From: Myxococcales bacterium
Lineage (GTDB): Bacteria; Myxococcota; Myxococcia; Myxococcales; Myxococcaceae
Assembly (NCBI GenBank): GCA_030693825.1
Contig: JAUXZV010000023.1
Span: 102,984 to 139,345 of the forward strand
DNA length: 36,362 bases
Direction: 5' to 3'
Numbering within the stretch: the first letter of the stretch is position 1; each line of letters starts with the position of its first letter. Below, in pieces: positions 10,029 to 32,588 of this stretch. Both the position numbers and the translations under genes were made by a program. The notes under the pieces were generated by a model that worked only from the letters and a program-made list of their open reading frames with translations, ran no database searches and was not told the DNA's origin.

Positions 10029-12701
10029 TCACGCCAGCGACTTGGTCACGATCTCGTACACGTCCTTGCTGCAGCCCTCGCGGTCGAGAATGCGCTGGAG
10101 CTCCTGCTTCATCAGCGCCTGCCTCGGTGGGTCCTGCCGCTTCCATCGCGTCAGCGGCGTCAGCATGCGCGCGGCGATCTGCGGGTTGAACACGTCGAGC
10201 GTGCGCACCTGCTCACCGAGGAACGCGTAGCCGCGGCCGCTGGCCTCGTGGAAGCGGAGCGGGTTGCTCATGCCGAGCGCCGCGATGAGCGAGCGCGCGC
10301 GGTTCGGGTTCTCGAGCGTGAACGCCTCGTGCTTCATCAGCGCCATCACGTCATCGAGCGTCTGCGGCCGCGTGCTCGTCGCCTGGAGCGCGAACCACTT
10401 GTCGACCATCAGCGCCTCGCCCTTCCACTGCGCGTAGAAGGTCTTGAAGGCCTCGTCGCGTGCAGGGCTGGTCGTCGCCGAGAGCAGTGACAACGCAGCC
10501 TGCGTGTCGGTCATCGAGCCAGCGCGGCGAAGATGCGCGAGGACTTGCGCTTCGCCATCGGCCAGCCGTGCACGCCACGCCACCATCACGTTGCGAAGGC
10601 TGCGACGGCCCACGTCATCGGGCGCGAAGCGATAGGCGACGCCATCGAGTGCCTTCGAGAGGTGCGCGTCGACCTGCGTGATGAGCGGGAGCAGCGCCGT
10701 CGCCAGCGTCGTCACGAGGTGCTCGCGGGCCCGGTGCGCGCTCGCGTAGTCGGCCCAGGCGAGGCGATCGCCGATGACGTCGATGCCGGGAACGCTGAGC
10801 GCGAGGGCGAGCAGCGCGGGATCTCCAGCAGGCGTGAGCGCGGTCGCGAGCGCCGTCTTCACTGCGTCGACGAGTTGGGCAGCCGGAGCGATGGGCTCCT
10901 TCCCACCCTGAATCGCCGCGATGCTCGCGAACAGGTGCCGCAGGAACAGCTCCTGGCCCGCCTCGACGCGGTTGAACGCATCGTCGTCATGCGCGAGCCG
11001 GAAGAGCAGGGCGGTCTCGTCGTCGTCGGTCTCGAGAATGATGGGCGCCGAGAAGCCACGCAGCAGCGACGGCACCGGAGCGTGCGAGAGCCCCGAGAAC
11101 ACGAAGCGCTGCTCCGCCTTCGTCAGCTCGAGCACGCACTCGGTGCCACGCGCGACGCCATCGACGGTGAGCTGCACCGGCTTGCCGTCCTTGCCGAGGA
11201 GCGACGTCACCACCGGCACCAGCATCGGCAGCTTCTCTGCTTGTCCCGGCGTCGGAGGAACGGTCTGCGTGAGCGTCAGCGTCCACGTGCCCTTCGCCGC
11301 GTCCCACGCGCCCTTCGACGTCACCTTCGGCGTCCCGGCCTGCGAGTACCACCGCGAGAACTGCGTGAAGTCGCGCCCGCTGACCTCGGCCATGCAGGCG
11401 AGGAAATCGTCGGTCGTCACCGCCTGGCCGTCGTGCCGGCTGAAGTACAGGTCGGTGCCTTTGCGGAAGAGCTCGTGCCCGAGCAGCGTCAAGTACATCC
11501 GGACGACCTCGGCGCCCTTCTCGTAGATGGTGACCGTGTAGAAGTTCGAGATCTCGACGTAGCTGTCGGGTCGAACCGGGTGCGCGGTCGGGCCCTGGTC
11601 TTCGGGGAACTGCAGGCTGCGCAGCCTCCGCACCTCTTCGATGCGCTTGACGGAGCGCGAGCCGACGTCGGCCGAGAACTCCTGGTCGCGGAAGACCGTG
11701 AAGCCTTCTTTGAGCGAGAGCTGGAACCAGTCACGACACGTCACGCGGTTGCCGGACCAGTGGTGGAAGTACTCGTGGCCGACGACGCCCTCGATGCCCG
11801 CGAAGTCGACGTCGGTCGCGGTGTCGGGTCGCGCGAGCACGAACTTGGTGTTGAAGACGTTGAGGCCCTTGTTCTCCATCGCGCCCATGTTGAAGTCCGA
11901 CACGGCGACGAGGTTGAAGACGTCGAGGTCGTACTCCCGGCCAAAGCGCGTCTCGTCCCACCGCATCGACTTCTTGAGGCTGTCCATGCAGTGCGCGGTC
12001 TGGTCGAGGTCGTGCGCGCGCACCCAGACGTTCAGCGCCACCTGCCTACCGCTCATCGTGGTGAACGCATCGGAGCGCGCCACCAGGTTCCCCGCGACGA
12101 CGGCGAACAGGTAGCAGGGCTTCTTGTGCGGGTCGTGCCACACGGCGACGCGGCGTTTCTTCCCGTCGATGACTTCGTCGCGCTCGCTCACCTTGTTGCC
12201 GTTGCTGAGCAGCACGGGGAAGCGCTCGGGGTCGGCGCGCAGCGTGACGGTGAAGACGCTCATCACGTCGGGGCGGTCGGCGTACCAGGTGATCTTGCGA
12301 AAGCCCTCGGCCTCGCACTGCGTGAAGAGGTTGCTCGACGATGCGTAGAGGCCCTCGAGGCTCTTGTTCTTCGATGGCGTCAGGCGCCGGCGCGTCTTCA
12401 GCGTGAAGCGGTCGGGCGGCGCGTGCAGCGTCAGCCCTCCATCGGTCACCGCGTAGGCCGACTCGGGGAGCGTCGCGCCGTCGATGGAGATGGACAGCAG
12501 CTGTCCCGAGCCCTCGGCGTCGTGGTCGCCGTCGAGCAGCACGGGGCCCTGGACGCCCGCGCGCCGGACGATGACGAGCTCCGACTCGACCTCGGTGTGG
12601 TCGAGCTCGAGGTCGAAGGTGAGCGTCACGCGCTCGATGGAGAACGGCGGCGGGGTGTATTCGGCGAGGCGAATCGTCTTCGGGGTCGCGTCTCTCGGCA
12701 T
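10029..12701 (-). CDS. pepN: Aminopeptidase N (M1 family)
   Basis: GAMENKGLNVFN exopeptidase motif. HEYFHHWSGNRVT...LSLKEGFTVFRDQEF zinc site HExxH-x18-E. N-terminus MPRDATPKTIRLAEYTPPPFSIERVTLTFDL aligns with E. coli PepN. Start at ATG 12699-12701 (minus). Confidence 0.9.
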   Translation of the reverse strand: MPRDATPKTIRLAEYTPPPFSIERVTLTFDLELDHTEVESELVIVRRAGVQGPVLLDGDHDAEGSGQLLSISIDGATLPESAYAVTDGGLTLHAPPDRFTLKTRRRLTPSKNKSLEGLYASSSNLFTQCEAEGFRKITWYADRPDVMSVFTVTLRADPERFPVLLSNGNKVSERDEVIDGKKRRVAVWHDPHKKPCYLFAVVAGNLVARSDAFTTMSGRQVALNVWVRAHDLDQTAHCMDSLKKSMRWDETRFGREYDLDVFNLVAVSDFNMGAMENKGLNVFNTKFVLARPDTATDVDFAGIEGVVGHEYFHHWSGNRVTCRDWFQLSLKEGFTVFRDQEFSADVGSRSVKRIEEVRRLRSLQFPEDQGPTAHPVRPDSYVEISNFYTVTIYEKGAEVVRMYLTLLGHELFRKGTDLYFSRHDGQAVTTDDFLACMAEVSGRDFTQFSRWYSQAGTPKVTSKGAWDAAKGTWTLTLTQTVPPTPGQAEKLPMLVPVVTSLLGKDGKPVQLTVDGVARGTECVLELTKAEQRFVFSGLSHAPVPSLLRGFSAPIILETDDDETALLFRLAHDDDAFNRVEAGQELFLRHLFASIAAIQGGKEPIAPAAQLVDAVKTALATALTPAGDPALLALALSVPGIDVIGDRLAWADYASAHRAREHLVTTLATALLPLITQVDAHLSKALDGVAYRFAPDDVGRRSLRNVMVAWRARLADGEAQVLAHLRRAGSMTDTQAALSLLSATTSPARDEAFKTFYAQWKGEALMVDKWFALQATSTRPQTLDDVMALMKHEAFTLENPNRARSLIAALGMSNPLRFHEASGRGYAFLGEQVRTLDVFNPQIAARMLTPLTRWKRQDPPRQALMKQELQRILDREGCSKDVYEIVTKSLA

Positions 12702-12740
12702 GGCGCGGGGTCTACCAGCTTCGGCCCAGGCGGTGCTGGC
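12625..12740. repeat. Direct repeat copy A (~116 bp): pepN codons 1-25 plus 39 nt of its 5' UTR
   Basis: About 86% identical (~15 mismatches plus 1 indel by hand alignment) to 19114-19230, in the same orientation. Confidence 0.7.
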
Positions 12741-12932
12741 AGTGCGGGCGACGCCAGCTGAACGGTGGAAGCCCTCGCGCGACGAATCGAGACCGACCAC
12801 TGAGGGTGCGCCGCTCACGTCGATCGCGCCGACTTCTGAGGCTCGGGGCGCGCAGTGGTCTCGCCCAGAAGCTCACCTGTCGGCGCGGTGAGATTTTTTC
12901 ATCGGCAAGCCCCGCACGTTGGAGCTATCTAG

Positions 12933-12967
12933 CGATTGTGCATTTGCGAATCGTTCTCAATATTGTC
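12933..12967. promoter_or_regulatory. AT-rich palindromic elements (CGATT-N11-AATCG; CAATATTG) at the start of the imelysin operon; candidate metalloregulator (Fur-like) operator
   Basis: Lies within a local low-GC island (12890-12990) in a ~70% GC genome. Contains the perfect 8-bp palindrome CAATATTG at 12958-12965 and a CGATT/AATCG inverted pair. Overlaps the predicted 5' end of the imelysin gene, where the codons show atypically low GC3. Confidence 0.3.
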
Positions 12968-14137
12968 CTGGTCTGGTGCGCGTCCTCCTGTACGACGCCC
13001 TCACCGAAGCCCGACCCCTCCGACGCGCCGCTCCAGCGCCAGGCGCTCGAGACGTTCGACACGGCGCTGGCGCGGCCGGCGCTCGAGAAGACGGTGACGG
13101 ACTTCGCGGCGCTCCGTGAGGCGGTCGACGGCTGGGCTCGCGCAGCGCAAGGGCAAGACGCGCAGGCGCTCACCTCGGCGAAGGCGGCGTTCGAGACGGC
13201 GTTCCTCACCTGGCAGCGGGTCGAGTTGCTTCAGCTCGGGCCCCTCGGCGCGGCGACGCAGGTGACGGCCGGTGAAGGGCTGCGAGACGAGATCTACTCA
13301 TGGCCGACGACAAACCTCTGCCGCGTCGACTCGGCGCTGGTGGCGAACACGACGCCTGACGACGCCTACTTCGCGACGGCGCTCGTCACCTCGAAGGGCC
13401 TCGCGGTGCTCGAGGAGCTGCTCTTCAACCAGTCGACGGCGAATGCGTGCCTGCCGAACGCCACCATCAACACCAACGGCAGCTGGGCCATGCTCGCGGG
13501 CTCGCCTGCGCTCGAGGAGCGGCGCAAGGCCTGGGCGCTCGGCGTGGCGCGGCACCTCGAGGCGACCGCGCGGCGCGCACGTGATGGGTGGAGCGCCCCG
13601 GGTGGCTTCGGCGACAAGCTCACGCAGGCCGGGGCCATGGGCTCGGTCTGGCGCACGCCGAAGGATGGCCTCGACGACGTCTACGCGGGGCTCTTCTATG
13701 CGGACCGCTGGGTGAAGGACTTCAAGCTGGGCGCACCAGCCGGCATCACCCCCGCGTGCATGGCGCAGTCGTGTCCCGCGCTCGCCGAGTCGCCGCGCGC
13801 CGGGCTGTCGACCAGGGCCCTGGTCGAGAACCTCGTCATGACGCGCGCCATCTTCACCGGCTCGTTCGAGCAGACCTCGAGCGCGGTGGGCTTCGACGAC
13901 CTGCTCGTCGAGCGTGGGGCCGGCGCGCTGAAGGACGAGATGCTCCAGAAGCTCGACGCAGCAGTGGCCGCCGCGCGCGCGCTCCAGCGTCCGGTCTCGG
14001 TCGCCGCCACCGAGGACCTCGACGGACTCCAGGCGCTCCACGCCGACGTCAAGGCCTTCACCGACCTCTTCAAGTCGCAGTTCGTCACCACGCTGTCGCT
14101 CAAGGTCCCCAGGGAGGGGGCCGGCGACAACGACTGA
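12938..14137 (+). CDS. Imelysin-like (Peptidase_M75 / IrpA-like) periplasmic or lipoprotein
   Basis: Helical-bundle protein with GLAVLEELLF-type and GVARHLEA motifs recalled from imelysin-like/EfeO-C family proteins. N-terminal hydrophobic signal IVLNIVLVWCASSC. Start uncertain: GTG 12938 or TTG 12944. GGAG lies 13 nt upstream of 12938. Confidence 0.6.
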   Translation: MHLRIVLNIVLVWCASSCTTPSPKPDPSDAPLQRQALETFDTALARPALEKTVTDFAALREAVDGWARAAQGQDAQALTSAKAAFETAFLTWQRVELLQLGPLGAATQVTAGEGLRDEIYSWPTTNLCRVDSALVANTTPDDAYFATALVTSKGLAVLEELLFNQSTANACLPNATINTNGSWAMLAGSPALEERRKAWALGVARHLEATARRARDGWSAPGGFGDKLTQAGAMGSVWRTPKDGLDDVYAGLFYADRWVKDFKLGAPAGITPACMAQSCPALAESPRAGLSTRALVENLVMTRAIFTGSFEQTSSAVGFDDLLVERGAGALKDEMLQKLDAAVAAARALQRPVSVAATEDLDGLQALHADVKAFTDLFKSQFVTTLSLKVPREGAGDND

Positions 14138-14168
14138 GCGCAGTGCACCCTTGTCACACAGAGGCACC

Positions 14169-15299
14169 ATGCATCGAGTTCTTCTGAGCCTGATCGTTCT
14201 TCCCGTCGCGGCCTGTGGCCCGATGGACATGCGTCTCGATGGCGGTGGTGGCGCAGGCGGCGGTTCGACCGGCTGCACCGTGACCCTCACCGGCGCCTAC
14301 CCCGACGCGGGCTTCGCGACGAACGCGGCCGCCGAGATCAGCCTCCTCGGCAAGCTCAACGCGCTCAACGCGCCGATGCGGGCCGCCGAGCTCGACGCGG
14401 GCTTCACGGTGACGCGCATGCAGCTCGACGAGCTCTTCAGCGCCGGCACGCCGTCGCTCTCGAGCCTCACCGCGGCGGGCTTCCAGCCAGTGGTCCAGGA
14501 GACCTTCACCGCCTTCCTCGCCTCCCAGGGCCGCGTGTGGACGCCGATGGACCCTCCGATGAGCGGCGGCATCTACGGCTCGGGCACCAGCCAGTGGATC
14601 TACAGTGAGCGCGGCGTCGACCTGCGGCAGGTCATCGACAAGGGGCTCTACGGCGCGCTGTTCTACGGCGAGGCGGTCAAGCGCATGCCGACGGCGACGA
14701 CGCCGGAGTCCATCGACCAGCTGCTCGCGCTCTACGGTGCCACGCCGAACTTCCCGCAGAACGACACCACGGCGCCCGGGCGCGACGAGCTGATGGCGAA
14801 GTACGCCAAGCGCCGCACGCCGCAGGGCATGACGGGGCAGTACACGACGATGCGAGATGCGTTCGTTCGCGCGCGGCTCGCGGCCGGTTCGGCCAGCTGC
14901 ACCGCCGAGCGCACGGCGGCGCTCGAGACCATCAAGAGCGAGTGGGAGGAGATGCTCGCGGCGACCGTCGTCTTCTACGTGAACTCGGCGGCGACGAAGC
15001 TGCAGGACCCGATGGCCGACGTGGCGAAGAAGTCTTCGGCGATGCACGACCTCGGGGAGGGCGCCTCGTTCTTCCTCGGGCTCAAGGCCGTGCCGCAGGC
15101 GAACCGGCGCATCACCGACGCGCAGATCGACCAGGTGCTCACGGCGATGAAGATCCCCTCGCTCGCGGGCTCGACGGCGTTCCAGTTGCTGACGACGGTG
15201 CCGCCTGACATCGACGCGCTGCTCGCGGCGAACATGCAGCTGCAGACCGTCTACGGCTTCACCGCCGATGAGATGGTGCGCTTCCGGACCAACTTCTGA
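14169..15299 (+). CDS. Lipoprotein of unknown function. Its position in imelysin/HTTM/TonB clusters suggests it could be the DUF4856-like lipoprotein of such loci (tentative).
   Basis: MHRVLLSLIVLPVAACG lipobox. Weak AGAGG RBS. Its stop overlaps the next start (TGATG), indicating translational coupling. Family assignment is from gene context only. Confidence 0.55.
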   Translation: MHRVLLSLIVLPVAACGPMDMRLDGGGGAGGGSTGCTVTLTGAYPDAGFATNAAAEISLLGKLNALNAPMRAAELDAGFTVTRMQLDELFSAGTPSLSSLTAAGFQPVVQETFTAFLASQGRVWTPMDPPMSGGIYGSGTSQWIYSERGVDLRQVIDKGLYGALFYGEAVKRMPTATTPESIDQLLALYGATPNFPQNDTTAPGRDELMAKYAKRRTPQGMTGQYTTMRDAFVRARLAAGSASCTAERTAALETIKSEWEEMLAATVVFYVNSAATKLQDPMADVAKKSSAMHDLGEGASFFLGLKAVPQANRRITDAQIDQVLTAMKIPSLAGSTAFQLLTTVPPDIDALLAANMQLQTVYGFTADEMVRFRTNF

Positions 15300-16609
15300 T
15301 GCGCGCGCGGTGGGAGCAGCTCGCGGGCTGGGCCGGCGCCTCGGAAGACGGCGCGTCGGTGCGGGTGTACCGCGCCCTCATCGGGCTGCTCCTCGCCGGA
15401 GCCCTCGTTCGCCTCCACCTGACGGGGTGGACGGGGCCGCTGTTCCTCGAGCCGACGTTCCGGTTCGAGTACGAGGCGTTCGCCTTCGTTCCCGTCATCC
15501 CGAAGGCGCTGGTGCCGTGGGCGCTCGCGGTGGGCGCGGTCGGCGCCGTGGTGCTGGGCTTCGGGGCCGGCTTGGCGCGCCGGCTGGGCGGTGTCGTCTT
15601 CCTCGCCTGCTTCGGGTGGCTCAAGCTGTATGACGTCACCAACTACCTGAACCACGACTACCTCGCGTTCCTGCTTGGGGCGCTGCTGACGGTGCTCCCG
15701 CTCGACGGCCCCTCGCTGCCGCGCTGGGCGCTGTGGCTCCTTCGTTTTCAGGTGGGCGTCGTCTACGTGCACGCCGGCCTCGCCAAGGTGAACACCGACT
15801 GGCTGCTGCACGGCCAGCCGCTCGAGACGTGGTTCGCGGCGAACCGGGGCCTGCCCGTGCTGGGCCCGTTGCTCGCGCTGCCGTTCGCGCCGCTCCTGGG
15901 GAGCTGGGCCGCTTGTCTCTACGACCTGACGATTCCGTTCTGGTTGTCGGCGCGGCGAACCCGGCCTTTCGCGCTGGTGGCGGTGCTCGTGTTCCACGGC
16001 GCGACGCACGCGCTCTTCGACATCGGCATCTTTCCCTTCCTGATGACGCTGAACGCAACGCTGTTCCTCGACCCGTCGTGGCCGCGGCGGCTCGGGTGGC
16101 GCCCGGTGGCCGTGGCGCAGGGCGGTCGGCCGCTCGGTGCAGCCCTGGCAGTTGGGCTCGCGATGTACGTCGCCTTCCAGGCGCTCTTCCCGCTGCGCTC
16201 GCACCTGCTCGGCGACGACGTGCTGTGGGACGAACAGGGCATGCGCTGGTCGTGGAAGGTGATGCTGCGCGAGAAGAACGGCGCGGTGAGCTACCGGGTG
16301 CGCGCGAAGGGCGAGACGCGCGAGTGGCAGATTGACCCTCGCGACGTGCTGACGGCGCGGCAGGCGAACGAGATGAGCGGCCAGCCGGACCTCATCGTGC
16401 AGCTTGGGCGGCACCTCGGGCGAGACCTCGCGCAGAAGCTCGGCCGGCCCGTCGAGGTGTTCGTCGACGCGAGGGTCTCGTTGAATCGGCGCGCGCCGAG
16501 GCTGCTCTTCAAGCCTGAGGTCGACCTGTTGACGCTCGAGAACCTTCGGCAGGCGCTGAACGAGTCTCCACGGCGGGCGTCTTCGCCAGAATCGGTCGCG
16601 GTGAGGTGA
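15299..16609 (+). CDS. HTTM-domain integral membrane protein (vitamin K-dependent gamma-carboxylase-like)
   Basis: VYRALIGLLLAGALVRLHL...LFLEPTFRFEYEAF...YVHAGLAKVNTDWLLHGQPLETWF matches the HTTM signature. At least 8 TM helices. Start is coupled to the upstream stop. Confidence 0.75.
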   Translation: MRARWEQLAGWAGASEDGASVRVYRALIGLLLAGALVRLHLTGWTGPLFLEPTFRFEYEAFAFVPVIPKALVPWALAVGAVGAVVLGFGAGLARRLGGVVFLACFGWLKLYDVTNYLNHDYLAFLLGALLTVLPLDGPSLPRWALWLLRFQVGVVYVHAGLAKVNTDWLLHGQPLETWFAANRGLPVLGPLLALPFAPLLGSWAACLYDLTIPFWLSARRTRPFALVAVLVFHGATHALFDIGIFPFLMTLNATLFLDPSWPRRLGWRPVAVAQGGRPLGAALAVGLAMYVAFQALFPLRSHLLGDDVLWDEQGMRWSWKVMLREKNGAVSYRVRAKGETREWQIDPRDVLTARQANEMSGQPDLIVQLGRHLGRDLAQKLGRPVEVFVDARVSLNRRAPRLLFKPEVDLLTLENLRQALNESPRRASSPESVAVR

Positions 16610-16610
16610 C

Positions 16611-19076
16611 GTGATGTGGTGGCCGGTCGTCGTGTCGTTGTTCGTCGCCCAGACGCCGACCGGTTCGGCTGACGGAGGCTCGTTCGACGAACCTCGCGGC
16701 CACTGGGAGTCCCGCACGCGAGTGAGCGAGCTGCCGCCGCTCGCCGACGGTGGCAGCTTCGAAGCGGATGAAGCTGCGGCACCGCGTGGCGTGACGGCGG
16801 CTGATCCCGACGGTGGCGGCTTCGACGCGGGAGAGGAAGCGACCCCGCGTGGCACGACGGTGGCTGACCCCGACGGTGGCGGCTTCGACGCGGGAGAGCA
16901 AGCCCGTGCCGCCACGGTGGCTGGCCCCGATGGTGGCGTGTGGGACGCCGAGGACGAAGCGGCGCCGGCCTCCGACGCCGGAGTGGGCTTCACCACGAAG
17001 GTGGTTGGGCAGCGGGGACCTGACGTTCGTCGCATCACCGGCAGCGCGGTGACGCTCGGCGAGGAAGACCTCGAGCGCCGCGAGCTCAACGACATTCATC
17101 GGGTCCTGGGTGAGGTGCCCGGCGTGTACTTTCGTGAAGAAGATGGGCTGGGCCTGCGGCCGAACATCGGCCTGCGCGGCGCGAACCCCGATCGGAGCGC
17201 GAAGGTCACGCTGATGGAAGACGGGGTGCTGCTCACGCCGGCGCCGTACTCCGCTCCCGCCGCGTACTACTTTCCGCTCGTCACCCGAATGGTGGGGCTC
17301 GAGGTCTACAAAGGGCCAGCGGCGATTCGGTTCGGCCCCCAGACGATTGGCGGCGCCATCAACCTGCGCACGCGCGAGGTGCCGAAGGAGCACCTCTTCA
17401 AGCTCGACGTCGCTGGAGGCAGCCGCTTTCAGGCGCGGGTGCACGGCGTCGCCGCGGTGGGCACGGAGCGCTGGGGCCTGCTCGCCGAGGGCGTGTTCCT
17501 GCGCGACGAGGGGTTCAAGGTGCTCGACCGCGGCGGCAACACCGGCTTCGAGCGCGGCGAGGTGATGCTGAAGGGGCGCGTGAGCCCCAACGACGCATGG
17601 CAACAGCAGCTCGAGGTGAAGGCGACGCTCTCGCTCGAGGACAGCCGGGAGACGTACCTGGGCGTGTCGACCGAGGACTTCGAGGCGACGCCGAACCGCC
17701 GGTACGCGACGACGGCGCTCGACCGGATGGAGTGGAACCGGCTCTCGGTGACGGCCCGCTGGAGCGCCCAACCGGCGTCGTGGTTGTCGTTGTCTGCGGC
17801 GGCGTACCGGCACTCGATGTTCCGCGCGTGGAATCGGCTCGATCGCTTCCGGCGGGGCCCGGGCCTGTACGAGCTGTTGGTGCAGCCGGTGCGCGGAGGA
17901 CTCGACGGTCAGTACCTCGGCGTGCTGCGCGGGGCGGTCGATTCGAGCAGCCTCGACGAGTCGCTCATCGTGCTGAACAACGCGCGCACCCTGGTGAGCC
18001 AGGGGGTGCAGGCCGAGGCGGTGGCGAAGCTGACGACGGGGCCAGTGCAGCACGAGCTCGAAGCGGGCCTGCGGTTCCACCACGACGAGGTTCGGCGCAA
18101 CCACACCGCCACCGGCTACGCAGTCGTCGGCGGCGCGCTCGAGCCTGACGCCTTGCCGGTGGCGCAGGACGCGCTCAACCGGGGGCTCTCGCGGGCCGGG
18201 GCGCTGCACCTGCATGACACCATGACGTGGGGGCGCCTGCTGGTGTCGCCGGGCATGCGCGTCGAGCTCATCGACACGGTGTTCAAGGACGACCTCTCGG
18301 GAAAGACGTCGCGGTCGCTCCAGGCGGTGCCGCTCTTCGGCGCGGGCGCGGTGGTGGCGTTGCCGCTGGGCCTCAACGTCTTTGGAGGTGTGCACCAGGG
18401 CTTCAGCCCCGTGACGCCCGGCCAGTCGGCGGACGTGCGGCCCGAGCGGGCGCTGCATGGCGAGCTCGGCGTTCGGTCGCCGTCGCGGCGTCGTCGGCTC
18501 GAGCTGGTGGGGTTCTGGAGCGAGTACTCGAACATCACCGGCGAGTGCACCGGCAGCACGGGCTGCGTCGACGACGCGCTCAACCGGCAGTTCAACGGGG
18601 GCGCGGCGCGCATCGTCGGGCTCGAGGCCCTGGCGTCGGTCGTGATTCCGCTCCCGGCCGACATCGAGCTGGTGCCTCAGGTGACGTACACCCTGACGAG
18701 CGCGCGGTTCTTGTCCGACTTCACCTCGTCGAACCCCATCTGGGGCGTGGTGCGGGCGGGCGACCTCATTCCGTACGTGCCGACGCACCAGGGCTCGGCG
18801 CGGCTCATCTTCAACCGCGACGCGCTGTCGCTGTCGGTGGGCGCGGAGTTCTCTGGTGGCGTCGTCGAGGAGGCGGGCGACGGCCTCTCGCAGCCGACGG
18901 TGCCGGGGCGGGTGTTGCTCGACGCGACGGCGAGCTACCGGGTGGGGCTGTTTCAGTTCTACGCGCAGGGCATGAACCTGACGAACCAGCAGGTGGTGGT
19001 GGCGCGGCGCCCATTCGGTGCGAGGCCGCTGGCTCCGCTCGCGGTGCAAGCCGGCGTGCGGGTGCAGTGGCCGTAG
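16611..19076 (+). CDS. TonB-dependent outer-membrane receptor with an N-terminal acidic repeat extension
   Basis: Plug domain (DIHRVLGEVPGVYF...NIGLRGANPDRSAKVTLMEDGVLL...YKGPAAIRFGPQTIGGAINLRTRE) followed by a long barrel ending ...RVQWP. The GTG at 16611 or ATG at 16614 follows GAGG. It starts 1 nt after the HTTM stop. Confidence 0.8.
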   Translation: MMWWPVVVSLFVAQTPTGSADGGSFDEPRGHWESRTRVSELPPLADGGSFEADEAAAPRGVTAADPDGGGFDAGEEATPRGTTVADPDGGGFDAGEQARAATVAGPDGGVWDAEDEAAPASDAGVGFTTKVVGQRGPDVRRITGSAVTLGEEDLERRELNDIHRVLGEVPGVYFREEDGLGLRPNIGLRGANPDRSAKVTLMEDGVLLTPAPYSAPAAYYFPLVTRMVGLEVYKGPAAIRFGPQTIGGAINLRTREVPKEHLFKLDVAGGSRFQARVHGVAAVGTERWGLLAEGVFLRDEGFKVLDRGGNTGFERGEVMLKGRVSPNDAWQQQLEVKATLSLEDSRETYLGVSTEDFEATPNRRYATTALDRMEWNRLSVTARWSAQPASWLSLSAAAYRHSMFRAWNRLDRFRRGPGLYELLVQPVRGGLDGQYLGVLRGAVDSSSLDESLIVLNNARTLVSQGVQAEAVAKLTTGPVQHELEAGLRFHHDEVRRNHTATGYAVVGGALEPDALPVAQDALNRGLSRAGALHLHDTMTWGRLLVSPGMRVELIDTVFKDDLSGKTSRSLQAVPLFGAGAVVALPLGLNVFGGVHQGFSPVTPGQSADVRPERALHGELGVRSPSRRRRLELVGFWSEYSNITGECTGSTGCVDDALNRQFNGGAARIVGLEALASVVIPLPADIELVPQVTYTLTSARFLSDFTSSNPIWGVVRAGDLIPYVPTHQGSARLIFNRDALSLSVGAEFSGGVVEEAGDGLSQPTVPGRVLLDATASYRVGLFQFYAQGMNLTNQQVVVARRPFGARPLAPLAVQAGVRVQWP
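16746..16980 (+). repeat. In-frame tandem repeat (~60-63 bp period, ~4 copies) encoding DGGGFDAGEE-A-PRGTTVADP units in the TonB receptor N-terminus
   Basis: Successive units beginning gacggtggc(a/g)gcttcga... are directly visible. Copies 2 and 3 are nearly identical over their first 30 nt. Confidence 0.6.
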
Positions 19077-19113
19077 TGCGCTGAAGGTGCCCGGCGCGCA
19101 GACTCACCACGGC

Positions 19114-19230
19114 GTCACGCGCTCGATGGAGAAGGGCGGTGGCGTGTATTCAGCGAGGCGAATCGTCTTTGGGGGTAGCGTCTCTCGGAATGGGTCGCGG
19201 TCGACCAGCTTCGGCGTGGGTGGTGCTGGC
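19114..19230 (-). pseudogene. Direct repeat copy B: a degenerate duplicate of the pepN 5' end (start region plus first ~25 codons), on the minus strand
   Basis: Minus-strand translation gives ...AEAGRPRPIPRDATPKDDSPR* versus the intact pepN ...AEAGRPRAMPRDATPKTIRLAEY. The start codon has mutated (CAT to AAT on the plus strand) and a frameshift follows. About 86% nucleotide identity to 12625-12740. Confidence 0.7.
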
Positions 19231-19579
19231 GCTGCTGCTGCCTGCCTGTTCGCGCGTGACGCCGTGCGAGCCGTGGAAGGGCTGGGAGCTGACAGCGCTG
19301 AGTGATGCGCCCGGCGAGCGCCTCGAGGTCTGCACCGAGGCGATGCTCCGTTGGCGCGTCATGCCCGGCGGCACGCCAGAGGCGTGGCTCCGTCAGCTCG
19401 AAGCCATGAAGCCCGATGGCCACTGGCGCGCGTGGCAGCGCCGCGCGCTCGTTCGCAGCGGCACCATCGGCGTCAGCCTCGACGTGCGCTCCGACGGAGA
19501 CGATCTCGTCATCACGCTCCGTCCCGACCGGCGCATCGACGTCGCCGCGGCGCTCCGCGAGCTCGAGCTGCAGCGGTAG
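19190..19579 (+). CDS. Small putative lipoprotein (129 aa) whose start and signal peptide lie inside repeat copy B
   Basis: MGRGRPASAWVVLALLLPACS lipobox. GC3 is high throughout. The ATG at 19190 is the plus-strand ATG that overlaps the former pepN start position. Confidence 0.45.
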   Translation: MGRGRPASAWVVLALLLPACSRVTPCEPWKGWELTALSDAPGERLEVCTEAMLRWRVMPGGTPEAWLRQLEAMKPDGHWRAWQRRALVRSGTIGVSLDVRSDGDDLVITLRPDRRIDVAAALRELELQR

Positions 19580-21234: not shown

Positions 21235-21576
21235 AGTGCGCAGCCTACGGGAGACAGGGCATGTAGGATTTGTAGGTTTGACGGATCCAGCGACGGCGTC
21301 AGTGCTTCGTCGGCTCGGACGGCGGAGGGGCTCGCGGCACCGTCACTGCGAGCAGCACCGTCGCGTAGGGCGCGCCCGCGACCGTCACGCGCTTCACCTG
21401 CGCAACCGCTCCGCTGTCGAGCTTCACCAGTTCTCCGTCGGTCATGGCGAGAAAAGTACCAAAGCCCGAAAGCCCTCGGCAGCGCCCCTGTGAAAATCGG
21501 TAAATCAACGTCTCTGTCAAGGCGTTTACATAGATTCTTGTCTGCAAGAGCCCTGATTTATTGATTTTTATAGATG

Positions 21577-21598
21577 TCCTTCACAGCGCAGTGAAGGA
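21577..21598. promoter_or_regulatory. Perfect inverted repeat TCCTTCAC-agcgca-GTGAAGGA in a low-GC intergenic region
   Basis: 8-bp stem with a 6-nt loop. It lies 54 nt downstream of the stop of the 21652-22239 gene on the minus strand, but no U-tract follows on that strand. It could be a terminator or a regulator binding site for the kinase promoter region. Confidence 0.3.
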
Positions 21599-21651
21599 GT
21601 TGACCGTCTCCGAACGTCAATCGTTGCGCCGTATCAAGGCTCACGTGTGAA

Positions 21652-22239
21652 TCACTCGGCCAGCACGCGCTCCCTCAGCGTCGGCGCCACGAGCCCATCG
21701 GAGCGTTCCCTCGGATTCTCGAGCTTCGACGGGTTGACCCCGATCGCGCCGGTCTTCGTGAGCGCGGTCGGCATTCCGCCATCGGAGTCGATTCGCTCCC
21801 AGGCCGCGTAGACACCGCGTCTGCACAGATGGTTGGTCGGGTTTTCGTCGACGCAGCGCTGAAACACCTCGGCTGCCTTGCGCCACTCGTGCGGCCCGGT
21901 GGTCTCGCTCAACACCAGCTTCACGGCGTACTTCAGCTCGGGCGAGTCGGCGCTCTCGAACGGTGACGGCGCGAACTCGACGGTGGGGCCCGGCTTCGCG
22001 GCCGCGACGCCAGCGTCACTCCCTGCCTCGACGACAGCCGCGGTCGGGGCGCCCATCGCCGGCTGGGTAGGCGCGGCCACCGTTCCCGTCATGGCGGCAG
22101 GTGGAGCGCCGACCTCCGCGACCGGCGCTGGCGACGTCGCCGACGGAGCGGAGTCGTCGTCGCCCAGAATGAGAAAGAGTCCCAGGGCGATCATCACCAC
22201 CGCGACCGCGGCGAGCGCCAGACGCTGCGTGTTCGTCAC
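21652..22239 (-). CDS. Membrane-anchored hypothetical protein (N-terminal TM, Pro/Ala-rich linker, C-terminal globular domain)
   Basis: GTG start at 22237-22239 with AGGAGG 6 nt upstream. Its start overlaps the upstream stop (GTGA). No family recognised. Confidence 0.6.
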   Translation of the reverse strand: MTNTQRLALAAVAVVMIALGLFLILGDDDSAPSATSPAPVAEVGAPPAAMTGTVAAPTQPAMGAPTAAVVEAGSDAGVAAAKPGPTVEFAPSPFESADSPELKYAVKLVLSETTGPHEWRKAAEVFQRCVDENPTNHLCRRGVYAAWERIDSDGGMPTALTKTGAIGVNPSKLENPRERSDGLVAPTLRERVLAE

Positions 22240-24727: not shown

Positions 24728-26419
24728 TCAGAGCCCGCCGAGCCCGGTGCAGTTCTGCGCCGTCAAAGGCGAGCTACTCGTGACGCAGCACTGGCCGTAC
24801 GTCGTGTTGCACTGGGTGGCGCCGGTCACGTTCGCGCAGTCCGAGTTGGTCGCGCACGCCTGCCGCCACACCATGCCGCCCTTGAGGCCGGCGTCGGGGA
24901 AGTAGACGGGCGTGCACCGGTAGCCCGTGCGCGGCGAGCTGCCGAGCGACAGGCAGGCCTGCCCACACCAGAAGTCCGAGCCGCCGTCAGCGCGGGTGCG
25001 GAGCAGCACCTCCATACCGTTGGCCTGCACGCAGTACGAGTCGGGCGCGAAGCCCGTGTAGGCGAAGCACTGGCCGCCGGGGAAACCCATGAACGGAAGC
25101 TCGGTGCCACCGAAGCAGACGCCCAGCGCCGGGTCCGGTGGGTTCGAGCAGCCTGCGTTGTTGGTGCACGTACCGCCGAGGTTCGTCGGCAGGCCACCGC
25201 CGGTGAAGGTCGCGTTGGTGCTGTTGAGGTTGAGCCAGCAGCCACCCGCCGACGTCGCAGCAGTGGCGTCGGAGATATCGGTGCACTCCAGCCCCGACGA
25301 GCACTGTCCCAACATCGTGCACCCGTTCACGCAGTAGCGGCCGGTCTCGTTGTACAGCGCGAGCGTCGAGCTGGTGCCACCGGCGCAGGTGTTGCCCGCG
25401 CCGCAGTTCGACTCACCGCTCGAGCTGCAGGGAAGGGTACAGAACCCCTGCGGGAAGAATGACGGCGCGAAGCCTGGCGTCGGGTTCGTCTGCGTCTTGC
25501 AAATCGCGGTGGAGCCAAGGCTGGCAGTGCACTGCGACGCGTTGGTGCAGGGTGCGCCGATGCCGCTGATGGGAGCGCCACCGCCGCTGCCGCCACCCGT
25601 CGCGCTGCCACCACCTGCGCTCCCGCCACCTGCTGCCGACCCCGTGCAGACGCCGTTGGTGCAGGCCGTGAAGCCGTTGCGCACGCAGTTCTGACAGAAG
25701 CTGCCGTTGGTGCCGCAGGTGGTGACGCTGATGTTCGCGAGGGGCACGCAGGCCAGCGTGCCGCCGGTCTGCGCGAGGCAGGTCGTGCACGCCGGGGCTC
25801 CACCGCCGCTACCGCCGCCCGCGCCGCCACCACCGGAACTGCCGGAGCACATGCCGAACGCGTTGCACACCGCGCCACCGCTGCACACGCTGCACTGATT
25901 TCCGGCGCGCCCGCACGCCAGGGCCGCGTTACCGTTCTGGCAGACGTTGTTGAGGCAGCAGCCCAGACAGTTCGCGGGTGAGCAGTTCGCCGTGCCGCCG
26001 CCGGTCGCGACGCCACCACCCGTCACCGTGCCGCCACCCGTCGCGAGTCCTCCGCCAGTCGCGAACCCACCACCGGTCGCCACTCCACCACCCGTCGAGA
26101 GCCCGCCGCCGGTCGCGAAGCCGCCGCCTGCACTGCCGCCGCCCGTCGTCGCGAAGCCGCCGCCAGCGTTGTTGCCACCCGAGCCGCCCGTGCAGACGCC
26201 GCCGAAGCTGCAGGCCTGCCCGAGGCTACACGACGTACAGGCTGCGCCCTTCGAGCCACACACGCTGTTCTGGTTGCCGAGCTGGCAGCGGTTGCTCGAG
26301 TCACAGCAGCCCGTGCAGGTCGTCGGGGTGCACTGCTGCGGGCCGCACGAGGCGCTCATCGACAGCAGCGCTCCGCAGATGAACCCCGTCATCACCCAAC
26401 GCGTCATCGTCATGGACAT
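24728..26419 (-). CDS. Secreted Cys-rich repeat protein with an internal GGGxAT repeat array
   Basis: ATG at 26419 with GGGAG 10 nt upstream. Signal peptide MSMTMTRWVMTGFICGALLSMSASC. At least 3 repeats of a ~48-aa module with 9 conserved Cys (C-x3-C-xGCC-...-CG-x4-C-x2-C...). An 8-copy GGG(F/L/V/T)(A/S/V)T array spans plus ~25995-26140. Confidence 0.7.
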   Translation of the reverse strand: MSMTMTRWVMTGFICGALLSMSASCGPQQCTPTTCTGCCDSSNRCQLGNQNSVCGSKGAACTSCSLGQACSFGGVCTGGSGGNNAGGGFATTGGGSAGGGFATGGGLSTGGGVATGGGFATGGGLATGGGTVTGGGVATGGGTANCSPANCLGCCLNNVCQNGNAALACGRAGNQCSVCSGGAVCNAFGMCSGSSGGGGAGGGSGGGAPACTTCLAQTGGTLACVPLANISVTTCGTNGSFCQNCVRNGFTACTNGVCTGSAAGGGSAGGGSATGGGSGGGAPISGIGAPCTNASQCTASLGSTAICKTQTNPTPGFAPSFFPQGFCTLPCSSSGESNCGAGNTCAGGTSSTLALYNETGRYCVNGCTMLGQCSSGLECTDISDATAATSAGGCWLNLNSTNATFTGGGLPTNLGGTCTNNAGCSNPPDPALGVCFGGTELPFMGFPGGQCFAYTGFAPDSYCVQANGMEVLLRTRADGGSDFWCGQACLSLGSSPRTGYRCTPVYFPDAGLKGGMVWRQACATNSDCANVTGATQCNTTYGQCCVTSSSPLTAQNCTGLGGL

Positions 26420-26593
26420 GGTGTTGCTGCTCCCGATGAAGCGCCCCGCCGGCCACGGAGAGAGCGCCTCTGAAGCAACCCTGTACCCGAAACACGGGGC
26501 TTGCTTCAAATCTTCGACCCGCACGCGTCACCGCCCTGCGTCGGACGTCTGGTGGATGGTGGGTTCGCAGTGGTCGGGTAGAACCACCTCGCG

Positions 26594-30272: not shown

Positions 30273-32588
30273 TCAGGGCGCGCCGCCGTCACAGAGGGGG
30301 TTCAGCTCGGTCGGGCTGCCGTAGTCGCCGGGCCCGGCGTCGGTGGCGAAACGGTTCGGCGCGATGCACAGGTTCGCCGGCACGTCGTTGATGGCGGGCG
30401 TGATGAGCATCGGGTCGATCAGCAGCTCACCGGGCACCTGCCATGACTTGCCGCTCGTCGACCGGAAGAAGGCGATCTCGTCGATGCCGGCGTCACCGCG
30501 GAAGAGCCGCAGCAGCTCGTTGCCCGAGCTGCTGATGCCGATGGTGAAGGTGGCGATGGGGGGCGGTAGCCCGCCGTTGAGGAACGCGTTCGCGCTGCGC
30601 GCGAGAATCGCGTACGTCGTCGCCGGCACGCGCAGGCAGTTCGACGAGGCGATGGTGTTGCGCGTGCCTGCACCGTTGGCGACCGAGAGGCCATTCAGGT
30701 CGACGTCGGTCGTGGCGTACACCTCGAACCAGGTTCCGACCGTGGTGCTGACCGACGGGCTTGGCATCACCTCGGTGATGACGAGGTCGCCCGGCTCTGC
30801 GGCGACGATGGGCCGCGGGGTGCCGTTGTCGAGGCAGGTGCCCGTCATGGCTTCCGGAGCGCAGACCGGGTTCGCCGCGCCAGGGGTGCCAGAGCTGCCA
30901 GGCGTGTACTCGCTGCTGGTCGGCGTGTCGCACCAGTTGGCCTCGACCGCAGCGAGCGCAGTCGTGGGCGTCGCAGGCCCACCGAGCATGCGGCTTCGCC
31001 CGGAGCGCGCCGTGCGCACCCACGTGTATTCACCGACGACCTTCGTGTCGCAGCGAACGCCCACGGTGCCCGACGAGTTGTTCAACGCGCCCAGGTCTGC
31101 GCCGTAGGCGTAGCTGATCCACGCGGGGTTCGGCCCGGTGCGCACGTCGCCGACCGCGACCGCCTGGCCCGGCGGCACGATGACGGAGCTGCGCACGACG
31201 TGGGACCTGGGGGTCGTCGCGCCCTGGCGGTAGGTGAGCGTGAGGCCCGCGAGGTCGATGGGCGCGGCCGTCGTGTTGAAGAGCTCGAACCACTCGAGGC
31301 CGGTGTCGGTGCTGGGCGGGTCGACCATCACCTCGGTGACGACGAGGTCGCCCCCGTCGATGGCGTTGCAGTCGAAGGTCGGCAGGCCGCCGTCGGGCAC
31401 CACCACGACGCCAGAGTCCGCCGCGCAGGCTCCGTTGGCCGCGGCGGGCGTTCCGAAGTCGCCCGCGCTCCCCATCCACGCTGAGCTGGCTTTGCAGAAC
31501 GAGTCAGGGGTGTCGTTGAGGCTGGGCAGAATCTCGTCGGGGTTGGCGAGCAGCTCGGGTCGCACCTGCCATGAGACGCCGGTCTGCGAGGCGAAGAAGG
31601 TGGCGTCGTCGATGCCGGCATCACCACGCACCAGCCGCAGCCGCTCATTGGCCGACGAGAGGCTGACCGAGAACGTCGCCACGGCCTTCGGCAGGCCGCC
31701 GTTGACGAAGGCGTCGTTCGAGCGCGCGATGATGTTGTACGACTGCGCCGCCACCGTGAGGCACTCAGGCGAGGTGAGCGTGGCGCGGCTGGTGCTCGTC
31801 GCGATGGCGAGGCCGTTGAGGTCGACGTCGGTGGTGGCGTAGAGCTCGATCCACTCGCCGAGGGTGTCGGTGACGGCCCTCGGGCTCGCCATGACCTCGG
31901 TGATGAGCAGGTCTCCGGCCTCGGCCGCGACGATGGGGCGGGGCATGCCGTTCTGCAGGCAGGTGCCGACCATCGCCTCGGGAGCGCACTGCGGGTTGGG
32001 GCCGCCGGGCGTGCCGTAGCCGCGCGGCGTGTACTCGGTCGAGGTGGGCGTGTCGCACCAGTTGGCCTCGTTCGAGACGCGCGAGGCATCGGGGTCGACG
32101 CCACCGCCGAGCATGCGGGAGCGGCCCGAGCGCGCGGCGCGCGAGTAGCTGTACTCGTTGATGGCCGTCATGCCGCAGCGAATGGCGACGGTGCCTGAGG
32201 TCTGGCTGAGCGCGCCGAGATCGTCTCCGTAGCTGTAGCCAATCCACGAGGGGTTGGGGCCCGAGCGCACGTCACCGAGCGCGAGGTAGCCGCGGGCCGG
32301 CACCTGCACCGAGGCACGAACGGTGTGCGACTTCGCCGTCGAGGTGCCTTGCCGGTAGGTGATGGTGTAGCCGCGCAGGTCGATCGGCGTGCCGAGGGTG
32401 TTGAAGATCTCGATCCACTCGGCGCCGGTGTCGGTGCCCTCGGGGTCGAGCATCAGCTCGGTGATGACGAGGTCTCCAGCCACGCGGCCTTTGCAGGCGT
32501 CGGTGGGCATCTCGACGGGCGGGGTACACGACACGGCCGCGACGGCCGCCACCAGGAACATCACTCGAATTGAAGGCACGTTAGTCAT
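30273..32588 (-). CDS. Lipoprotein composed of four lamin-tail domains (LTD) arranged as a tandem A-B-A-B duplication
   Basis: Four LTD signatures (GDLVITELMLDPEGTDTGAEWIEIFN...IDLRGY; GDLLITEVMASP...GEWIELYATTDVDLNGL; GDLVVTEVMVDPPSTDTGLEWFELFN...IDLAGL; GDLVITEVMPSP...GTWFEVYATTDVDLNGL). Start ATG 32588 (MTNVPSIRVMFLVAAVAAVSC) overlaps the upstream stop within ATGACTAA. Confidence 0.75.
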   Translation of the reverse strand: MTNVPSIRVMFLVAAVAAVSCTPPVEMPTDACKGRVAGDLVITELMLDPEGTDTGAEWIEIFNTLGTPIDLRGYTITYRQGTSTAKSHTVRASVQVPARGYLALGDVRSGPNPSWIGYSYGDDLGALSQTSGTVAIRCGMTAINEYSYSRAARSGRSRMLGGGVDPDASRVSNEANWCDTPTSTEYTPRGYGTPGGPNPQCAPEAMVGTCLQNGMPRPIVAAEAGDLLITEVMASPRAVTDTLGEWIELYATTDVDLNGLAIATSTSRATLTSPECLTVAAQSYNIIARSNDAFVNGGLPKAVATFSVSLSSANERLRLVRGDAGIDDATFFASQTGVSWQVRPELLANPDEILPSLNDTPDSFCKASSAWMGSAGDFGTPAAANGACAADSGVVVVPDGGLPTFDCNAIDGGDLVVTEVMVDPPSTDTGLEWFELFNTTAAPIDLAGLTLTYRQGATTPRSHVVRSSVIVPPGQAVAVGDVRTGPNPAWISYAYGADLGALNNSSGTVGVRCDTKVVGEYTWVRTARSGRSRMLGGPATPTTALAAVEANWCDTPTSSEYTPGSSGTPGAANPVCAPEAMTGTCLDNGTPRPIVAAEPGDLVITEVMPSPSVSTTVGTWFEVYATTDVDLNGLSVANGAGTRNTIASSNCLRVPATTYAILARSANAFLNGGLPPPIATFTIGISSSGNELLRLFRGDAGIDEIAFFRSTSGKSWQVPGELLIDPMLITPAINDVPANLCIAPNRFATDAGPGDYGSPTELNPLCDGGAP
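30300..32480 (-). repeat. Internal ~1.08-kb tandem duplication (two LTD-pair modules) within the LTD lipoprotein gene
   Basis: Protein halves (residues ~50-385 and ~415-770) are collinear and highly similar, including the RSGRSRMLGG and NWCDTPTS(T/S)EYTP segments. Nucleotide identity not computed. Confidence 0.6.

Follow-up and report, generated by a model that had tools for sequence, protein, structure and literature searches.

A four-gene imelysin, DUF4856, HTTM and TonB-dependent receptor module inserted between pepN and a divergent lipoprotein gene in a Myxococcales bacterium

In a 36,362-nt stretch of a Myxococcales bacterium genome (assembly GCA_030693825.1, contig JAUXZV010000023.1, positions 102,984–139,345; hereafter the window, whose own numbering is used throughout), the aminopeptidase N gene pepN is separated from a small lipoprotein gene by a four-gene operon encoding an imelysin-like lipoprotein, a DUF4856-family protein, an HTTM membrane protein and a TonB-dependent outer-membrane receptor, and a similar segment stands at either end of the operon. 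There is very little doubt that the four-gene segment was inserted between pepN and the lipoprotein gene, in the window species only, and that it is a resident module without a site-specific recombinase. To judge from the reading frames that it contains, the repeated segment is the head-to-head start region of the two flanking genes, each copy retaining one live start and one relic. The event is of an ordinary kind, a recombinase-independent relocation or import of a resident operon, and represents a clean, datable case of operon relocation without mobile-element machinery in GC-rich, recombination-active bacteria.

The duplicated start region and its state in relatives

The features of the duplicated junction are as follows.

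10029–12701, minus strand: pepN, aminopeptidase N, 890 aa, intact (Pfam Peptidase_M1, DUF3458 and DUF3458_C)
12623–12771: copy A of the repeat, with live pepN codons 1–27 at 12623–12701 and a relic of the lipoprotein N-terminus, plus strand, at 12700–12771
19112–19279: copy B of the repeat, with a relic of pepN codons 1–27, minus strand, at 19112–19192 and the live lipoprotein start from 19190
19190–19579, plus strand: small lipoprotein gene, 129 aa, no Pfam family (translation MGRGRPASAWVVLALLLPAC followed by S..., signal peptide, lipobox LLPAC)

A direct repeat of ∼117 bp, taken to be the 5′ end of pepN, had been reported around the operon in a preliminary description of this DNA, and the repeat is real: 12623–12740 and 19112–19230 are 86.6% identical over 119 columns (blastn, E = 1.6e-36), with no comparable second blastn match to it elsewhere in the flanks. 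A repeat search resolves the alignment into 12623–12685 against 19112–19174 (92%) and 12679–12745 against 19169–19235 (81%), with a register shift of 1 base. The pepN details given there likewise hold, the ATG being the complement of 12699–12701 (CAT on the plus strand; translation begins MPRDATPKTIRLAEYTPPPFSIERVT), with copy A covering 26–27 codons and copy B carrying ATT and a +1 frameshift. The repeat does include the pepN start, as described, but is actually a two-gene start region reaching at least 12771 and 19279, and the ‘39 nt of leader’ assigned to pepN are also N-terminal coding sequence of the overlooked plus-strand lipoprotein gene.

Beyond an 18-nt in-frame gap in copy A, similarity between the copies runs on to 12771/19279 (nucleotide local score, p ∼0.03), and TPAERWK in copy A corresponds in frame to TPCEPWK in copy B. 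The peptide pattern TP.E.WK occurs seven times in the 4.0 million residues of a six-frame translation of everything fetched, every time as the lipoprotein N-terminus or its copy A relic, and by virtue of this rarity the repeat unit is taken to be 12623–12771 in copy A and 19112–19279 in copy B. The junction segment of ∼150–170 nt is thus present on both sides of the insert, with a duplication of at least 149 nt and 6340 nt of DNA (12772–19111) between the copies. These flanking direct repeats are derived from the target, and are long and diverged, without a distinguishable identical core. A search of the whole window against Rfam matched no family, which rules out a known RNA element as the identity of the repeat. 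Two further identities were rejected: a paralogous gene start, as copy B has just 27 pepN codons and then the 3′ flank of the receptor gene, and a regulatory repeat common to two plus-strand genes, as the plus-strand reading of copy A is a dead relic.

The state of this site in relatives carries the case for insertion. Matches listed in a pepN search of genome contigs were at ∼50% identity (Proteobacteria), and synteny was instead established from protein searches and contig look-ups; in the protein search, pepN homologues graded from 96% to 57% identity in Myxococcota metagenome-assembled genomes (MAGs). Among the loci examined, the filled state is found besides the window solely in L085 (GCA_030696265.1), a conspecific MAG that is 98.4% identical to the window over 19.5 kb and has both copies. 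Locus L081 (GCA_040400045.1), with pepN at 96% amino acid identity and flanks at 87–92% nucleotide identity, matches the window as far as 12739, picks up again at 19117 and has a single junction copy. In L086, L089 (GCA_016793095.1) and L090, pepN and the lipoprotein gene are directly adjacent as a simple divergent pair, an arrangement seen in part in L084. The islet proposed in the preliminary description is borne out by these single-copy empty sites, found by the comparison of pepN upstream regions that it had put forward as a check. This distribution places the insertion later than the split from L081 and earlier than that between the window and L085.

Could the filled state instead be ancestral to the subclade of the window, L081 and L082, with L081, L082 and L083 emptied by RecA-mediated deletion between copies A and B? 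Such recombination would yield the left part of A and the right part of B, as L081 has, and the locus is prone to deletion: L081 has the lipoprotein gene as a frameshifted, truncated pseudogene (L081 9700–10003), L082 retains ∼49 nt of it (L082 9951–10001), and L083 lacks both this gene and the Ser/Thr kinase gene (L083 9579–10001). However, the genes are simply adjacent in the more distant L086, L089 and L090 (and in part in L084), the module lies elsewhere in GCA_016793095.1, L091, L093 and L096, and an insertion here would still be required, so that the timing alone would change; secondary excision is considered highly improbable. The pattern of these losses marks the DNA upstream of pepN as a hot spot for rearrangement in the clade.

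The lipoprotein has 13 homologues, all from Myxococcales/Myxococcaceae MAGs, and on comparison of gene order its gene is the ancestral divergent neighbour of pepN. In the window subclade, the ATG codons of the two genes overlap in the palindrome CATG. The copy A lipoprotein relic reads MARGLPASAQAVLAV, followed by a deletion of six codons and RATPAERWK, continuing PS...; the deleted codons include the lipobox cysteine, and the conserved TPCEPWKGW motif is destroyed. In copy B of the window strain, the pepN ATG has changed to ATT (CATG to AATG) alongside the frameshift; this loss of the start, noted previously for the downstream copy, is correct for the window strain but strain-specific, as copy B of L085 is intact, with CATG kept, no frameshift, and a relic that is still a perfect 27-codon open reading frame (ORF).

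A 16-nt motif, TCTACCAGCTTCGGCC (12711–12726, ∼10–25 nt upstream of the pepN ATG), is kept with or without the lipoprotein gene (L081–L084, L090), is diverged in L086 and L089, and in copy B (19201–19216) is mutated to TCGACCAGCTTCGGCG; its likely role is in the leader or promoter of pepN. Because the two start codons overlap, the upstream control region of each gene would sit inside the first codons of the other, and both genes would stay expressed only if the segment were retained at both sides of the insert. Around the two copies, scans for consensus sequences found neither a sigma-70 promoter nor an intrinsic terminator. The 113 nt from the receptor stop codon to the lipoprotein ATG (19077–19189) contain no terminator-like structure, and the lipoprotein gene may therefore be co-transcribed by read-through from the inserted, probably iron-regulated operon. 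An insertion into a zero-length intergenic region, between two genes sharing a CATG start, can thus spare both genes.

The inserted module and its other chromosomal positions

The DNA between the two copies comprises the following features.

12772–12866: filler of ∼95 nt between the copy A relic and the upstream motifs of the module, with a homologue in L085 alone
12867–12937, plus strand: upstream region travelling with the module, presumed promoter region (alignment of upstream regions)
12938–14137, plus strand: imelysin-like lipoprotein, Peptidase_M75 (Pfam PF09375, E = 6e-22; N-terminal alignment, lipobox)
12945–12959: 7-1-7 palindrome TGCGAAT-C-GTTCTCA, candidate Fur-type operator, overlapping imelysin codons 3–7
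14151–15299, plus strand: DUF4856-family protein, start uncertain by a few codons (Pfam PF16148, E = 3.8e-9)
15299–16609, plus strand: HTTM / vitamin-K-dependent gamma-carboxylase-like membrane protein (Pfam PF05090, E = 4.7e-51, and PF22777)
16611–19076, plus strand: TonB-dependent outer-membrane receptor (Pfam Plug and TonB_dep_Rec_b-barrel)
19077–19111: 3′ flank carried with the module, 35 nt, ending TCACCACG (homology to the L091 3′ flank)

The same four genes, in the same order, have an aldehyde dehydrogenase gene on one side and P-II/Sbt genes on the other in L091–L094 and L096, and adjoin mevalonate-pathway genes in L095; DUF4856 is second in order in every module copy. Identity of HTTM to that of the window is 87% and 82% within L091–L094 and 80% in L095, while the four module proteins of L096 (GCA_033763395.1) are 84–89% identical to those of the window. 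L095, with the module, and L089, with the empty site, share the assembly GCA_016793095.1, with MAG binning as a caveat. No HTTM homologue above 60% identity turned up in the L081 and L082 assemblies, where MAG incompleteness blocks any inference of loss, and a metagenome search with HTTM gave a best match of 73% identity on a 3.4-kb contig and no extra close contexts. From these positions, the module is an old resident of the myxobacterial clade that changes chromosomal position, and it may be exchanged between close relatives.

Nucleotide homology among the module copies extends from common upstream motifs to the receptor stop codon at 19076. Aligned upstream sequences from the window, L085, L091, L093, L095 and L096 show AGAAGC (12867–12872) and GAG-TTTTTTCATCG (12890–12904) kept in all operon copies; the presumed promoter region gave no match to a sigma-70 consensus. 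Of the 122 loci fetched, only L085 has a homologue of the filler preceding these motifs; there is none elsewhere in the window, and the upstream regions of the other operon copies cannot be aligned with it. The imelysin gene starts at GTG 12938 (MHLRIVLNIVLVWCASSC...) or at TTG 12944, as called in L085. The palindrome that overlaps its first codons is kept at the nucleotide level in all operon copies despite the A/T-ending codons that this entails in a genome with GC at third codon positions (GC3) of ∼0.91; it is unique in the window at 0 mismatches, other matches being at chance level. It fits 10 of the 14 positions of the E. coli Fur 7-1-7 consensus. Imelysin operons in other bacteria are Fur-regulated and linked to iron uptake (PMC3143127). 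The operon pairs its PF09375 protein with a TonB-dependent receptor that has both Plug and barrel domains, and the module is a self-contained uptake unit, probably under Fur/iron regulation, the iron regulation being suggested by the palindrome and by analogy with those operons. Conserved across Myxococcaceae, this uncharacterised and probably iron-regulated module of imelysin, DUF4856, HTTM and TonB-dependent receptor could be studied as a unit.

The N-terminal extension of the receptor contains a 63-nt (21-aa) tandem repeat, ADPDGGGFDAGE..PRG.T., in 3–4 copies (16744–16960). L085 has one unit fewer, and the module copies of L091, L093, L095 and L096 have a single DGGYWE unit; the receptor repeat is therefore a species-specific, copy-number-polymorphic expansion.

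A mobile or foreign origin, at which the preliminary description had hinted, finds no support in the content or composition of the module. No large ORF in the inserted DNA or elsewhere in the 36-kb window gave a Pfam match to an integrase, recombinase, transposase or excisionase, confirming the absence of an integrase noted before, and the decision to leave the mechanism open on that ground was the right one. A tRNA scan found none, and there are no terminal inverted repeats at the ends of the insert (longest 8–9 nt). The analogy with an att-site island fails on the lack of a recombinase and a tRNA, and on the lack of flanking direct repeats around the module copies of L091, L093, L094, L095 and L096 (best 15–30 nt, E > 0.007). 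Operon GC is 0.69–0.71, as in the flanks, with GC3 of 0.89–0.93 against 0.85–0.94 in the flanks; a comparison of codon usage, also proposed earlier as a check, showed no deviation, with a relative synonymous codon usage correlation of r = 0.984 between operon and flanks, where one half of the flanks compared with the other gives 0.993. Amino acid identity to GCA_016793095.1 is 74–82% for the operon proteins, a range that brackets the 81% of pepN, and 87% for isoleucyl-tRNA synthetase (IleRS). The upstream region called unusually AT-rich has a mild dip (GC 0.61 at 12800–12999) that holds the conserved promoter/operator motifs of the operon. The name HTTM refers to inter-kingdom transfer of the domain and does not amount to evidence for mobility of the operon. 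A transposon or insertion sequence was rejected for want of a transposase and terminal inverted repeats, and because the duplication of at least 149 nt compares with short ones of 2–14 bp; plasmid or phage carriage was rejected with plasmid matches at 34% identity or less and no phage matches.

Three observations concern parts of the window outside the junction and the module. At 21400–21700, between the kinase gene and a 195-aa ORF, lies a low-GC patch (0.51 vs ∼0.70) with a 48-aa ORF in the L085 annotation; in L083, a homologous region with the 48-aa ORF is directly upstream of pepN. ORF 24728–26524 (minus strand, 598 aa, no Pfam family) has an 18-nt periodic repeat of at least six units at 25995–26164, encoding a glycine/threonine-rich hexapeptide, with homologues of 562 aa (L081) and 594 aa (L082). 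At 30273–32621, the minus strand carries a 782-aa ORF that matches the Lamin Tail Domain twice and has an internal tandem duplication of ∼1.1 kb (30412–31384 vs 31540–32509, 71–76% identity).

Origin of the two junction copies

Three features of the repeat bear on how it was duplicated. The first is the pattern of substitution: over the 79-nt pepN part, copies A and B differ by five substitutions common to the window and L085, all synonymous and at third positions, with copy B states G/T/C/A/A at the equivalents of 12645/12651/12654/12663/12687; two further substitutions, also at third positions (one destroying the ATG), and one inserted base are window-specific. Third-position identity between the copies is 21/26 (0.81), a species-level divergence on a par with that between the pepN genes of the window and L081 (0.83–0.85), yet there are no first- or second-position changes, a pattern of p = 0.004–0.06 depending on the null model. 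The second is unequal decay, in that the copy A lipoprotein relic has lost 18 nt in one deletion and acquired small indels and ∼15 substitutions over 70 nt, and the pepN relic 4–5 substitutions over 79 nt (asymmetry p = 0.005–0.01). In the window strain the pepN relic is now decaying, with two substitutions and one indel, and this visible decay makes constraint an unlikely explanation for its earlier conservation. The third is the right junction, where CGTCAC, at the beginning of copy B, is common to pepN codons 25–27 and to the 3′ flank of the L091/L096 module copies: the window reads ...CCCGGCGCGCAGACTCACCACG joined to GCGTCACGCGC, L091 reads ...CCGGCGCTCATCACGACGTCACTCGC, and the pepN target reads GAGCGTCACGCGC. 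The window 3′ flank matches that of L091 at 16 of 19 positions, at the same offset from the stop codon.

Taken together, third-position-only differences, unequal decay and CGTCAC microhomology speak for a reading in which the two copies did not arise as an in-place target duplication but are orthologous versions of the junction, one from each of two diverged lineages; this reading is held tentatively and with slightly more doubt than confidence. The ancestor had pepN (minus strand) and the lipoprotein gene (plus strand) with back-to-back starts. In a donor lineage, the module would have landed in the lipoprotein gene at about codon 28, beside pepN, killing that gene, and the old lipoprotein relic of copy A would date from this landing. 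Donor DNA would later have recombined into a genome with an intact pepN/lipoprotein junction, by homologous exchange on the pepN side and, on the other, by an illegitimate join at CGTCAC of the module 3′ flank to pepN codons 25–27 of the recipient, a process that would count as homology-facilitated illegitimate recombination; integration by RecA of a circle that had been illegitimately excised would be equivalent. The first 27 pepN codons of the recipient and its intact lipoprotein gene would remain downstream as copy B, whose pepN codons would have become a relic only at the recombination. As a whole, the insertion of a resident module combined with a two-lineage origin of the repeats is the best explanation at hand, with belief and doubt about equally balanced.

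Several points weigh against this reconstruction. The substitutions are few (5–7), and generous null models give p of only ∼0.03–0.06; two events are needed where in-situ duplication needs one; and the donor arrangement (pepN, relic, module, non-junction DNA) is absent from all fetched contigs. Outgroup polarisation loads most changes on copy B, which fits the two-lineage model but is not demanded by it. For the microhomology, the evidence is the 3′ flank in one or two relatives that differ from the real donor by ∼15%, and the left junction (12771/12772) and the 95-nt filler are not accounted for. Third-position divergence to L081/L082 has no clear difference between left and right flanks, which speaks neither for nor against a donor tract; no such tract or breakpoint is visible in pepN. 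The promoter roles given to the relics are conjectural, the consensus scans having detected none.

The strongest rival is an in-situ insertion with true target duplication in a single genome, in which the ∼170-nt junction was copied twice, the copies were identical at birth and the relics then decayed. The routes would be a template switch of the type proposed for microhomology-mediated break-induced replication/fork stalling and template switching (MMBIR/FoSTeS), staggered-break fill-in, or a large tandem duplication followed by deletion, with the module coming from another locus or from incoming DNA. As outlined in Hastings et al. (2009, PMC2621351), a single rearrangement class of this kind is well known for microhomology junctions, and CGTCAC at the right junction, the lack of a recombinase, and a module from the same clade with native codon usage are all as expected. 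Outgroup polarisation, with 4–5 changes on the relic against 0–1 on live pepN, is what neutral relic decay predicts. Yet every relic change sits at a third codon position, positions 1 and 2 being unchanged (p 0.004–0.06), relics of equal age would differ 3–4 fold in decay (p 0.005–0.01), the L085 relic is still a perfect 27-codon ORF, and ∼170 nt is an unusual length for a stagger or a re-copied tract. Such single-genome alternatives are simpler but fit the third-position pattern and the unequal decay poorly, and in-situ duplication is accordingly a possibility to be kept in mind and not the expected outcome.

A comparison of the window with L085 lends support to the two-lineage origin and bears also on another alternative. 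In the 3′ half of pepN (10029–11364) their third-position identity is 0.90, against 0.97 in the 5′ half and 0.97–1.00 in the flanking genes; this difference is likely to represent a homologous-recombination import from a diverged lineage in one strain, and its contrast with the flanks shows that diverged pepN alleles are exchanged in the population. By a similar exchange with a diverged strain, the live pepN 5′ end (copy A) may have been overwritten after the insertion, whatever its mechanism, leaving copy B as a fossil of the resident allele. The imports visible between conspecific strains lend this some plausibility, and it accounts for the synonymous-only differences between the copies; however, it leaves unexplained a near-undecayed copy B relic beside a heavily decayed copy A lipoprotein relic, the import would need to end inside ∼80–150 nt of copy A, and, with copy A identical in the window and L085, it must predate their split. 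A later overwrite is judged improbable.

An integrase island at the pepN 5′ end with a replacement target copy (attL/attR) and a later-deleted integrase gene, which would explain the direct repeats around the insert, the regeneration of the target gene by one copy and the diverged, synonymous-only target copies typical of an element that carries its own, is already largely refuted and retains scarcely any probability: no recombinase, excisionase or remnant lies between the repeats or in the 36-kb window, the four operon genes fill the insert but for 35 nt at its 3′ end and ∼165 nt at its 5′ end, there is no tRNA and no att-like repeat at the two other loci of the module, no identical core is separable from diverged arms, and the composition is native, without plasmid or phage relatives.

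If the two-lineage origin is correct, long ‘target-site duplications’ may in other cases be juxtaposed donor and recipient orthologous segments, a caution for island-finding software that treats flanking direct repeats as att sites. An extension of the same idea, put forward as speculation and thought unlikely, is that the module is a recombinase-free ‘hitch-hiking cassette’, which, once two copies of a host junction flank it, would form a circle by RecA or at the CGTCAC microhomology, move into related genomes and re-enter by homologous recombination at the conserved pepN/lipoprotein junction. It would then offer a general route for the spread of operons among myxobacteria by host recombination alone, with the duplicated start region serving both as ‘att site’ and as a device that keeps both neighbours expressed.

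Relation to known systems

Homology-facilitated illegitimate recombination has been described for natural transformation in Acinetobacter and Streptococcus. The proposed event resembles it in combining one homologous crossover with a microhomology join, no dedicated recombinase and a related donor, and the CGTCAC junction, synonymous-only allele differences and native composition fit this type of process. It differs in that, for Myxococcota, the process is a proposal drawn from sequence, and in that the join here falls inside the anchor-homologous region, mimicking a long target-site duplication, in place of the usual replacement or deletion.

Integrase islands at gene ends and tRNA genes share with this locus the flanking direct repeats, a regenerated target, a decaying displaced fragment and, if the two-lineage origin holds, copies that come from different genomes. 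Unlike such islands, the insert has no integrase, tRNA or conserved core, its cargo is found at other loci without repeats, and, the target being the start region of two genes, a gene is regenerated at either end.

MMBIR/FoSTeS, as outlined in PMC2621351, has in common with the present case a short-microhomology junction, a distant segment inserted with duplication of its flank, and no mobile-element genes; the model was worked out mainly for eukaryotic copy-number variation. Its copies are identical at birth, whereas those described here have third-position-only divergence and unequal relic decay.

In gene content, the module is comparable to P. aeruginosa PA4370–PA4373 and to EfeUOB (Xu et al. 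2011, PMC3143127), in which an imelysin-like lipoprotein belongs to an iron-uptake-linked operon, and, like Fur-regulated imelysin operons, it has a Fur-box-like palindrome, here a candidate, at the operon start. The literature searched contained no paper naming imelysin together with DUF4856. Association with an EfeB/DUF1111-type peroxidase is given as nearly universal for imelysin operons (PMC3143127); in contrast to the operons surveyed there, the module has no EfeB/DUF1111 peroxidase or EfeU permease, and its imelysin is partnered by DUF4856, HTTM and a TonB-dependent receptor.

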